Shown here one piece after another: positions 3,508 to 4,136 of a DNA stretch of 12,164 nt (position 1 is its first letter; each line of letters starts with the position of its first letter). The DNA comes from a virus. Taxonomy: Duplodnaviria; Heunggongvirae; Uroviricota; Caudoviricetes. Below the pieces are notes generated by a model. The model was not told where the DNA came from. It was given only the letters and a program-made list of their open reading frames with translations, and made no database searches. A program made the position numbers and the translations under genes. The stretch lies in IMG/VR virus record IMGVR_UViG_2698536471_000010; one strand, 5' to 3'.

Positions 3508-3780
3508 TTACAGCATCATGACCGATTCGGGTTGAGGTTCAGTCGCATCGGCGACCGGTGATTCAGGCTGAACTTCACCGCTCTCTGCGGTGGTATCTCC
3601 CGCTTCAGTCGGTGGCTCTGCCTGTACACCAAGCAGCTCATCCAGAATGGCATCAACCTCTGCATCAAGACGCGCTTCCAGGTTATGGCGAAGTTTTTGT
3701 TTCAGTGCGCTCAGGACTTCTTCAGAGCGCAGGACTTCCTTCACTGCCTCAGCAGTGACCAGGGATGTAATTTCTGACAT
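3508..3780 (-). CDS. Hypothetical acidic protein (~90 aa, [21 protein letters not shown]...)
   Basis: Internal ATG at 3780 is preferred over the longer ORF-track start; helical N-terminal half and acidic Pro/Glu-rich tail; followed by an intrinsic terminator. Confidence 0.5.
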
Positions 3781-3820
3781 GGGATTTTCTCGTCGAAAGA
3801 TGTGATTAAGAAAGTTGCCG

Positions 3821-4000
3821 CTAAATGAGCGGCTCTTCGGGTTTGCTTCCGGCTGACTGACTGGCGCTGATTTTCTCAGCGGCCCTTTTGTCAATCTGTC
3901 TGCGCCAGACGTCACGCATGGCCCGGTATCCACCCGAAAGGAGATACAGCACACAGACCACCGTACAGAAGTACAGCATTAACTGGTTCAGAAATGTCAT
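3821..4000 (-). CDS. Hypothetical small membrane protein (59 aa, MTFLNQLMLYFCTVVCVLYLLSGGYRAMRDVWRRQIDKRAAEKISASQSAGSKPEEPLI)
   Basis: ATG at 4000 with GGAAAG SD-like motif upstream, one predicted TM segment, TAG stop at 3823..3821. One codon under the ORF-track cutoff. Confidence 0.35.
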   Translation of the reverse strand: MTFLNQLMLYFCTVVCVLYLLSGGYRAMRDVWRRQIDKRAAEKISASQSAGSKPEEPLI

Positions 4001-4096
4001 AATTTCTTTCCGTTATTGTTGACAATAAGAACTGTTTTCATTTAAAAAACCAGAGCACGAAAGTATCGTTCCTTTATTTTTTCTCCATAGGTATTA

Positions 4097-4136
4097 CCAC
4101 CGCCAGCGTCCATTCCTGTCGCTGGCGGTTTTTTTT
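4097..4136 (+). terminator. Plus-strand-oriented intrinsic terminator abutting the nanS-p 3' end
   Basis: CCACCGCCAGCG-TCCATTCCTGT-CGCTGGCGG followed by T8 on the plus strand; the T-run reaches the nanS-p stop codon. Confidence 0.5.

Follow-up and report, generated by a model that had tools for sequence, protein, structure and literature searches.

We analyzed positions 3508-4136 of a 12,164-nucleotide stretch of Caudoviricetes DNA (IMG/VR record IMGVR_UViG_2698536471_000010, hereafter the window), an interval between a nanS-p esterase gene and a phage lysis cassette that a preliminary description, made from the sequence alone, had presented as two unrecognizable small open reading frames (ORFs) insulated by terminators. 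The two ORFs belong to the long-catalogued families DUF1378 and DUF826, in neither of which a biochemical role has been assigned to the proteins. The explanation that we hold to be probable is that the interval forms the downstream two-thirds of a three-gene accessory cassette (esterase-DUF1378-DUF826) of temperate E. coli phages, with an independent small RNA (sRNA) gene on the opposite strand of the esterase-DUF1378 spacer. The plus-strand hairpin previously described as a terminator is most likely the 3' end of this gene, an unannotated Esr41-like sRNA of approximately 84 nt that is predicted from its sequence. In this case the cassette belongs to a lambdoid prophage, where it is part of the late operon and has the Q/methylase region on one side and a P21-type lysis cassette on the other.

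The first of the two ORFs, read like every gene of the window on the minus strand, is the 59-aa DUF1378 gene (ORF A, 3821..4000). Its product matches Pfam PF07125 over profile positions 1-59 of 59 with a score of 134.6 bits against a gathering cutoff of 25 (E 1.3e-39), and it falls in phrog_494. A hydrophobic N-terminal segment (approximately residues 3-22) forms one transmembrane helix and leads into a basic tail; beyond the transmembrane part come a juxtamembrane helix that is basic, the AAEKISASQSAG motif, which is invariant, and an end that is disordered. In the AlphaFold2 (AF2) model, residues 2-49 make up a single long helix. The DUF1378 peptide crosses the membrane once and carries a basic tail, and the positive-inside rule predicts an N-out/C-in topology in which the tail would be cytoplasmic. 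No match of DUF1378 to a holin or antiholin family was found in Pfam or PHROGs.

The second, the 90-aa DUF826 gene (ORF B, 3508..3780, minus strand; phrog_311), matches PF05696 over profile positions 1-70 of 75 with 98.9 bits (cutoff 25, E 1.8e-28), the match being covered by its N-terminal 68 residues. The protein is strongly acidic, with 20 D+E against 6 K+R, a net charge of about −14 and an isoelectric point of 4.1. A conserved helical head (residues 1-51) is followed by a variable, Pro/Glu-rich acidic tail that ends in MML, and the AF2 model places helices at residues 10-17 and 20-49 with a predicted local distance difference test (pLDDT) score above 90, leaving the tail disordered. The protein is soluble and helical, apart from its long acidic tail, which is disordered. 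Among relatives, the tail carries indels of whole codons only, giving total lengths of 81-96 aa, and the C-terminal MML or MMM is kept. The preliminary description had taken the size and character of both ORFs correctly, as a 59-aa single-transmembrane and an approximately 90-aa acidic protein, and erred in calling neither recognizable. The homology search that it proposed for the acidic protein yields the DUF826 family; the structure search gives no fold match in the PDB or BFVD, as the profile search of the PDB with the DUF826 alignment returns matches at chance level only (E ≥0.18) and Foldseek with the model, a helix hairpin plus disordered tail, returns none below E = 1 in BFVD.

Two further observations concern the DUF826 family. 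Database entries of 128-141 aa, phrog_8301 and the 139-aa orf43 of VT2-Sakai (2827-3246 of our locus L004) result from start calls that are over-extended and cross DUF1378 in a different frame, and their equivalent in the window is a 148-aa GTG-initiated ORF at 3508-3954 (minus strand). There is also a more distant DUF826-like subfamily of approximately 60-80 aa (P0245, P0241, P0243, P0255, P0259, P0266) that has no DUF1378 upstream, exemplified by L095 207-389, after which a KilA-N protein comes; the DUF826 head domain is present in another context too.

Both ORFs are genuine protein-coding genes under purifying selection, because their Pfam scores lie far above the cutoffs, they are always intact, their in-frame substitution ratios are low and the tail changes by whole codons. 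The relatives collected for this comparison are 80 viral contigs together with VT2-Sakai, PhiR12 and one O111 prophage, and 82 loci were analyzed for the ORFs. Both frames are intact in 82 of 82, rather than absent or out of frame in close relatives, which favors genes, and they encode 24 distinct DUF1378 and 23 distinct DUF826 proteins. The ratio of nonsynonymous to synonymous substitution rates (dN/dS) in the annotated frame is 0.19 for DUF1378 and 0.13 for codons 1-51 of DUF826, against more than 1.5 in the other two frames, and the variable sites of both ORFs are mostly third codon positions.

RefSeq gives both proteins their DUF1378 and DUF826 names in near-identical O111/O157 prophages. 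Many O157 and O111 prophages of E. coli, as well as Shiga toxin (Stx) phages, have DUF1378 annotated in the same position, and both families appear between nanS-p and S in a 2023 survey of Stx2a phages (PMC10462455). Neither family is large or broad, with approximately 110-120 clusters among 5.8 billion proteins and source names that are all Escherichia or Shigella. When 1.84 billion proteins were searched exhaustively by profile, 55 representatives were recovered, more distant DUF826 proteins among them. A one-genome-per-species collection scanned with both protein alignments gave no relatives, NCBIfam has no model matching either protein and PADLOC reports no defense-system match. Three apparent fusions of the 'Rosetta-stone' kind, P0008 (DUF1378+DUF826), P0100 (S+DUF826) and P0181 (DUF1378+esterase C-terminus), were set aside as frameshift or rearrangement artifacts that carry no evidence of interaction.

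The gene context ties the ORF pair to the esterase and not to lysis, because the cassette also occurs in a Mu-like prophage without a nearby holin. In the lambdoid loci the esterase C-terminus lies upstream in 80 of 82, even where its identity falls to 47-60%, and the other two loci are cut at a contig end; the esterase is there in every locus for which upstream sequence is available, and no different upstream neighbor of DUF1378 occurs among the 82. The order esterase C-terminus-DUF1378-DUF826-S is kept wherever the sequence reaches that far. The esterase is likewise upstream of DUF1378-DUF826 in four Mu-like and four distant lambdoid loci. Among the distant DUF826 proteins, P0240 and P0237 again show the order esterase-DUF1378-DUF826-holin, and P0239, a common one, sits in a Mu-like prophage with esterase-DUF1378-DUF826.

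The Mu-like prophage reads tape measure, DNA-circularization protein, baseplate genes, tail-fiber assembly, Gin-type recombinase, esterase, DUF1378, DUF826, a 66-aa ORF, com, mom and a disrupted host bcsA, with no holin or endolysin near the cassette. Its esterase-DUF1378 spacer of 35 nt contains no terminator and is too short to hold an sRNA; downstream of DUF826 comes a hairpin of 11 bp that has a T-rich tail. What stays constant is thus the unit of esterase, DUF1378 and DUF826, usually with a 3' terminator, and the sRNA slot and S are features of the lambdoid setting. An example of the Mu-like arrangement is L100 (NZ_CP075697, 9419-14469), with others in L091-L094, and the prophage is inserted in bcsA. 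The Mu-like cassette protein is listed in 910 blocks of the contig collection, which makes this a common prophage type.

The plus-strand hairpin at 4099-4136 was already seen correctly as a terminator at the nanS-p 3' end. Its stem (4099-4108/4120-4129) is followed by T8 at 4129-4136, one base off the nanS-p stop codon, and it folds with −21.7 kcal/mol at z = −6.4, with 0 of 200 shuffles as good. Seen on the gene strand, the same hairpin has A8 before it and UGGUAAUACC after it, and since no U-tract follows in that direction, it terminates plus-strand transcription only. What it would terminate is a predicted sRNA gene at 4053..4136 (plus strand), which is convergent with nanS-p and antisense to the late operon. 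The putative sigma-70 promoter lies at 4019..4047 (TTGACA at 4019-4024, a 17-nt spacer and TTAAAA at 4042-4047), 18 nt from the DUF1378 start codon and on the opposite strand. The predicted transcript comprises a 5' hairpin (4057-4069) followed by a U-rich linker, a seed UUUUCUCCAU (4079-4088), a small hairpin (4090-4098) and the terminator stem (4099-4129) with U8 at 4129-4136. Direct reading finds no ATG, GTG or TTG inside 4053-4136.

At Rfam gathering thresholds nothing is reported in 3508-4136. A permissive scan gives a full-length match to the Esr41 model (RF02676) at 4060-4136 (plus strand) with 30.9 bits and an E-value of 1e-3; genuine Esr41 from Sakai SpLE1 scores 108.6 bits against the same model. 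By blastn, the window element and genuine Esr41 share 78% identity over 63 nt (E 4e-5). The relationship also holds in reverse: a covariance model (R1) built from 12 phage variants with Esr41 left out retrieves genuine Esr41 with 32.1 bits (E 9.5e-6). Homology is seen in both directions, and the seed, terminator and promoter layout are common to the two.

Conservation of the element was followed in 34 distinct esterase-DUF1378 spacer variants drawn from 80 loci. The −35 box stands at a fixed distance from the DUF1378 start in all 34, as TTGACA in 29 and TTGACT in 3. The sRNA body measures 80-97 nt in every one, with a strong hairpin and T6-8 ending 1-6 nt from the esterase stop, and a T[TC]CTCC motif is kept in 32 of the 34. 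Where the spacer has been replaced (L049, L072, L079, L096, L097), a different hairpin with a T-run occupies the same place. The 140-nt spacer is found in 665 of 5426 complete E. coli genomes (approximately 12%) with a median of 2 copies, and it is essentially identical in VT2-Sakai/Sp5, where the Sp5 copy of the sRNA scores 95 bits. Two groups of published sRNAs were considered as its identity and rejected on location: in Sp5-type phages both AsxR and STnc100 lie upstream of nanS-p, and the possible Sakai counterparts EcOnc10/11/12/15/42/50 (Tree et al.) lie at the pR'-tR' region, downstream of Rz or at the nanS-p 5' end.

The minus-strand terminator before S was also noticed earlier, and it lies at 3458..3498, just outside the interval, between the DUF826 stop and the S start. 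Its 12-position stem (3487-3498/3470-3481) contains 11 pairs and one U.C mismatch and is followed by the U-rich tract UUUUUCAUGUUGU; on the minus strand the arms continue into CCUUUUUCAUGUUGU down to 3458. The hairpin folds with approximately −19 kcal/mol at a z of −2.1 to −2.3, a stability equalled by 6-7 of 200 shuffles, and the element was not called by the consensus terminator scan. Among 15 distinct variants of the DUF826-S spacer, 11 of the 12 positions are paired in all, the loop is free to vary and a U-tract is present in 15 of 15; the mismatched position is mismatched in 9 variants, that of the window included. The Sp5 allele carries two double compensatory changes, one from G-C to A-U and one from A-U to G-C. 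With stem, U-tract and conservation of the Rho-independent type, we take 3458-3498 to be an intrinsic terminator, at which termination is predicted. A terminator-like hairpin flagged by the scan at 3817-3833 is taken as chance, being missing from the shorter intergenic alleles and having no real U-tract.

This terminator goes with the lysis cassette and is not specific to the ORF pair, because prophages without the ORFs likewise have a terminator before S. In Sakai Sp9, where DUF1378 and DUF826 are missing, the esterase is followed by a 150-nt spacer, by the same terminator and by S in turn, and E2348/69 PP2, from which the ORF pair is absent as well, has a different 11-bp hairpin with U6 approximately 50 nt before S. 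Closer to S, a small hairpin (CUUCCG-GAUAA-CGGGAG, 3439..3455, minus strand) directly precedes the Shine-Dalgarno sequence of S; it belongs to the S leader and not to the ORF pair. It is nearly invariant in the alignment and adjoins the dual starts of S (MYQMEK...), and it may correspond to 'sdi', the structure by which lambda sets its ratio of holin to antiholin.

These results fit a scheme in which the ORFs have no promoter of their own and would be co-transcribed with nanS-p, chiefly by Q-antiterminated late transcription. In lambdoid late operons, RNA polymerase modified by Q reads through intrinsic terminators. The terminator after DUF826 would stop non-antiterminated transcription before S, R and Rz, and the Q-modified polymerase would read through it. 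In the lysogen, the Esr41-type sRNA of approximately 84 nt, probably Hfq-dependent, would be made from its own TTGACA promoter. It may act in trans via the anti-Shine-Dalgarno seed UUUUCUCCAU, as Esr41 does at ribosome-binding sites, and because its whole length is complementary to the late transcript, it could work in cis as well. In the predicted trans-pairing, no significant interaction was found with the start regions of DUF1378, DUF826, S, ORF186 or R. The two proteins most likely serve the esterase rather than lysis timing, because the pair follows the esterase and not the holin. They may do so, for example, through membrane-associated handling or release of a signal-less enzyme. This assignment to the esterase is the weakest step of the scheme. 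A role for a membrane peptide in enzyme handling is conceivable because NanS-p here, the first gene product of the three-gene cassette, has no signal peptide by its N-terminal sequence. The nanS-p gene is among the most strongly induced late genes (PMC8065619).

Several observations weigh against this explanation and are best considered together. The Esr41 score of the window element, 30.9 bits, compares with an Rfam gathering score of 102. The −10 box of the sRNA promoter (TTAAAA) is weak and the strict promoter scan did not report this promoter, and Tree et al. (PMC4104026) do not list the Sakai Sp5 copy among their orphan peaks of Hfq binding, an absence from the cross-linking data that could reflect multi-mapping reads or low expression. 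The terminator of the window combines the U.C mismatch with only about 5 U and a z near −2, and in one distant relative, L097, the GC hairpin after DUF826 lacks a U-tract. Esterases occur without the ORF pair in Sakai Sp4 and Sp9 and in E2348/69 PP2 and PP5, so that the functional link is one-way and is drawn from gene context alone. A weak leftward promoter for the ORFs may also be present. The searchable literature holds no transcript or protein evidence for the ORFs, and the locus tags ECs1210/1211, Z1467/8 and L0106/7 gave nothing relevant.

A promoter of this kind would be required if the pair were an autonomous insulated moron, with its own lysogen promoter, terminators on both sides and a lysogenic-conversion trait such as exclusion or membrane modification. 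The notion is attractive in that two terminators face outward from the unit, the spacer does contain a promoter region (for the opposite strand at least), DUF826 has a terminator behind it in lambdoid and Mu-like settings alike, and a separate promoter and terminator are typical of this part of Stx phages (PMC8065619). We nevertheless consider it unlikely. No leftward sigma-70-like promoter appears in a strict scan of 3100-4500, a scan that also misses the sRNA promoter, and inspection of the 34 intergenic variants reveals no conserved leftward −35/−10 pair. The plus-strand terminator is explained by the sRNA gene and has no U-tract in gene direction, the 35-nt Mu-like spacer contains no terminator, so that the ORFs there extend the esterase transcription unit, and the terminator before S is found also where the ORFs are absent. 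PADLOC, as noted, gives no defense match. The insulated mini-unit that had been suggested is thereby retained in its outline, with outward-facing terminators around the pair, and loses its meaning, as one terminator fits the sRNA gene and the other occurs without the ORFs.

It might alternatively be supposed that the two proteins are lysis-timing accessories, with DUF1378 in the membrane and DUF826 in the cytoplasm modulating the P21-type pinholin S as an antiholin or regulator (compare T4 RI and RIII acting on holin T), a role the preliminary description had raised for the membrane peptide. In the lambdoid loci a P21-type holin comes directly after the pair wherever the sequence reaches that far, and DUF1378 is generically holin-like, being small with one transmembrane segment and a charged C-terminal tail. 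Against this, the pair follows the esterase into a Mu-like prophage that has no adjacent holin, Sakai Sp9 and E2348/69 PP2 have the same S cassettes but not the pair, neither protein belongs to a holin or antiholin family of Pfam or PHROGs, and a terminator stands between the pair and S. The suggestion is weakened accordingly, and we regard it as quite doubtful.

The position of the sRNA promoter, 18 nt from the start codon of a gene for a small hydrophobic peptide and divergent from it, recalls a type I toxin-antitoxin system of the tisB/istR-1 or zorO/orzO layout, in which DUF1378 would be the membrane toxin and the sRNA its antitoxin, and such systems do exist in this prophage, as the hok/sok module elsewhere in the window shows. 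This is very unlikely. Pairing of the sRNA with the initiation regions of DUF1378 and DUF826 is no better than that of shuffled sRNA (fractions 0.98 and 0.51), where the test concerns trans pairing and cis complementarity would arise only if the mRNA started upstream, in nanS-p. Relatives of the sRNA occur without DUF1378 (Esr41 in SpLE1; PasA/PasC), the Mu-like copy has DUF1378 without the sRNA, and DUF1378 is always accompanied by DUF826 and the esterase. That the ORFs and hairpins are chance features without function is hardly credible and is refuted for the ORFs: the minus-strand hairpin alone only marginally beats its shuffles (z ~−2), but selection is frame-specific, the ORFs are intact in 82/82 loci, and the hairpins are either conserved with compensatory changes or swapped for other hairpins at the same positions.

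Along the direction of its genes, the window carries first a hok/sok-like module, then DUF968 and RusA, a Q-type antiterminator (8946-9512), a DNA methylase (7298-8374) and the NanS-p-type sialate O-acetylesterase (nanS-p, 4138..6102; Pfam DUF1737 + SASA + DUF6645), followed by the two small ORFs, the P21-type class II holin S (3216..3431), a 186-aa ORF with a GTG start (2655-3215), lysozyme R (2085-2618) and Rz (948-1526), all on the minus strand. The hok/sok-type type I toxin-antitoxin module occupies 11745-12069 (minus strand), where the Rfam sok antitoxin at 11895-12069 scores 118 bits, above gathering, and overlaps a 70-aa ORF matching the PHROG 'MokW-like host killing'. The 186-aa ORF has no Pfam match and matches phrog_1085 and fragment families, to which PHROGs assign no function; in the closest RefSeq relative it is interrupted by an IS1203 insertion, and in other relatives a DUF1327 protein takes its place. 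The approximately 1.2 kb between the DNA methylase and nanS-p (6050-7297) is the site of stx, AsxR/AgvB and STnc100/PasD in Stx phages. It contains no tRNA and no Rfam match even at E ≤1, is AT-rich close to nanS-p (GC content of 28-35% at 6050-6500), and carries on the plus strand a 108-aa ORF (6377-6703) that has no Pfam match.

The region is ordinary and widespread in Stx-type and related E. coli prophages, and the results refine the annotation of a medically important, well-trodden region without overturning current understanding. What these results contribute is the reassignment of the upstream 'terminator' to a predicted sRNA gene and a gene context that links DUF1378 and DUF826 to the NanS-p esterase and not to the holin. 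A plausible but wrong reading is corrected, in that the interval is no orphan insulated unit and instead holds two catalogued DUF genes and what appears to be an sRNA gene missed by annotation pipelines. Study of the two families should focus on the NanS-p esterase and not on lysis timing alone, because the three genes move together into a Mu-like phage.

The putative Esr41 paralogue, with the same seed, is present in approximately 12% of complete E. coli genomes, often in multiple copies, Stx2 phages included. If it is expressed, phenotypes and targets attributed to Esr41 may be shared with or buffered by paralogue copies, and read-mapping studies that discard multi-mapping reads would have missed these copies. 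A bolder proposition can be formulated, namely that esterase, DUF1378 and DUF826 form one unit that gives the signal-less NanS-p a lysis-independent route to the envelope or medium, or gates its activity, and that in parallel the Esr41 paralogue is an active regulator with the Esr41 seed. Taken jointly this seems rather unlikely to us. Hundreds of Stx-type prophages carry the paralogue (Stx2 phages of the Sp5/VT2-Sakai type included), and were the proposition true, carriage of Stx phages would in itself re-tune host iron uptake and the expression of the enterocyte effacement locus (LEE) and flagella.

Compared with known families and systems, the two proteins are unexceptional. ORF A is a plain member of PF07125, PHROG 494 and the RefSeq 'DUF1378 family protein' group, with the same length and architecture and no structural difference. 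ORF B shares the helical head and acidic tail common to all members of PF05696, PHROG 311 and the RefSeq 'DUF826 domain-containing protein' group; with its tail allele it measures 90 aa, where 933W/Sp5-type phages have 81 aa and others 96 aa. With respect to the morons and Q-read-through terminators of lambdoid late operons (general knowledge; PMC8065619), the window shows the same placement of accessory genes between pR' and the lysis genes, with a 3' terminator. It differs from morons in that no dedicated promoter is detected for the pair and its terminator is also present in S cassettes without the ORFs.

The closest positional counterparts of the sRNA are PasA and PasC of enteropathogenic E. 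coli (EPEC) E2348/69, which are Northern-verified, Hfq-dependent and recovered by RNA interaction by ligation and sequencing (RIL-seq), with the orientation '> < >' (PMC8550237, Table S6), and EcOnc51/52 of enterohemorrhagic E. coli (EHEC) Sakai. For EcOnc52 (Sakai Sp4), an Hfq peak from UV cross-linking and analysis of cDNA (CRAC) starts at the esterase stop (PMC4104026, Table S2). The synteny 'esterase-PasA-holin-lysozyme' was described by Zhu, Shabalina and Storz, who also report Esr41 covariance-model matches near PasD (bioRxiv 10.64898/2026.05.13.724894). With the PasA/PasC coordinates of Table S6 mapped onto NC_011601, all of these share the slot and orientation of the window element, in the esterase-holin spacer and convergent with the esterase, and have TTGACA promoters. 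In PasC and EcOnc52 the terminator abuts the esterase stop as in the window and the stem GCCAGCG..CGCUGGC is common; PasA lies in the same spacer. The likeness to PasA/PasC ends there: the terminator alone aligns, the sRNA body is not alignable, the similarity used by Zhu et al. (blastn, >75% coverage) is not reached, R1 gives E-values of 0.28-0.72 on both loci, and the PasA and PasC loci lack DUF1378 and DUF826. We therefore call the element an Esr41-like paralogue in the PasA/PasC slot, as it is not PasA/PasC by sequence. As a separate observation on E2348/69 PP2, its esterase-holin spacer (L002 2762-3020, minus strand) consists of two tandem antisense sRNA-like units, an EcOnc52-like one that abuts the esterase stop and PasA further in, which explains the reported minor 236-nt PasA species ending at the esterase stop.

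By sequence, the nearest relative is Esr41/EcOnc14 (RF02676), an Hfq-dependent sRNA of the EHEC island SpLE1 that binds the ribosome-binding sites of chuA, cirA and bfr (PMC5286369; PMC8065619). Its promoter, TTGACA-17-TTATAT, has the same geometry as TTGACA-17-TTAAAA in the window, and the two elements present the same parts in the same order: a 5' hairpin, a U-rich linker, the identical UUUUCUCCAU, a small GG(G)UAUU(C/A)CC hairpin, a CGCC(A/G)GC terminator and a U-tail ending ...UAUCA. The 5' hairpin and the terminator loop are not alike. The two also differ in setting, as Esr41 lies in SpLE1 without nanS-p or DUF1378 as neighbors, whereas the window element abuts the nanS-p stop next to DUF1378 in a lambdoid late operon. 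Genuine Esr41 (L088, Sakai SpLE1 1000-1125) nonetheless shares the end ...UUUUUUUAUCA, which in the window forms the junction of the sRNA with nanS-p and whose TCA is the complement of the nanS-p stop codon, and its promoter spacer resembles those of the phage variants. These likenesses suggest that Esr41 is itself a relic of such a prophage locus.

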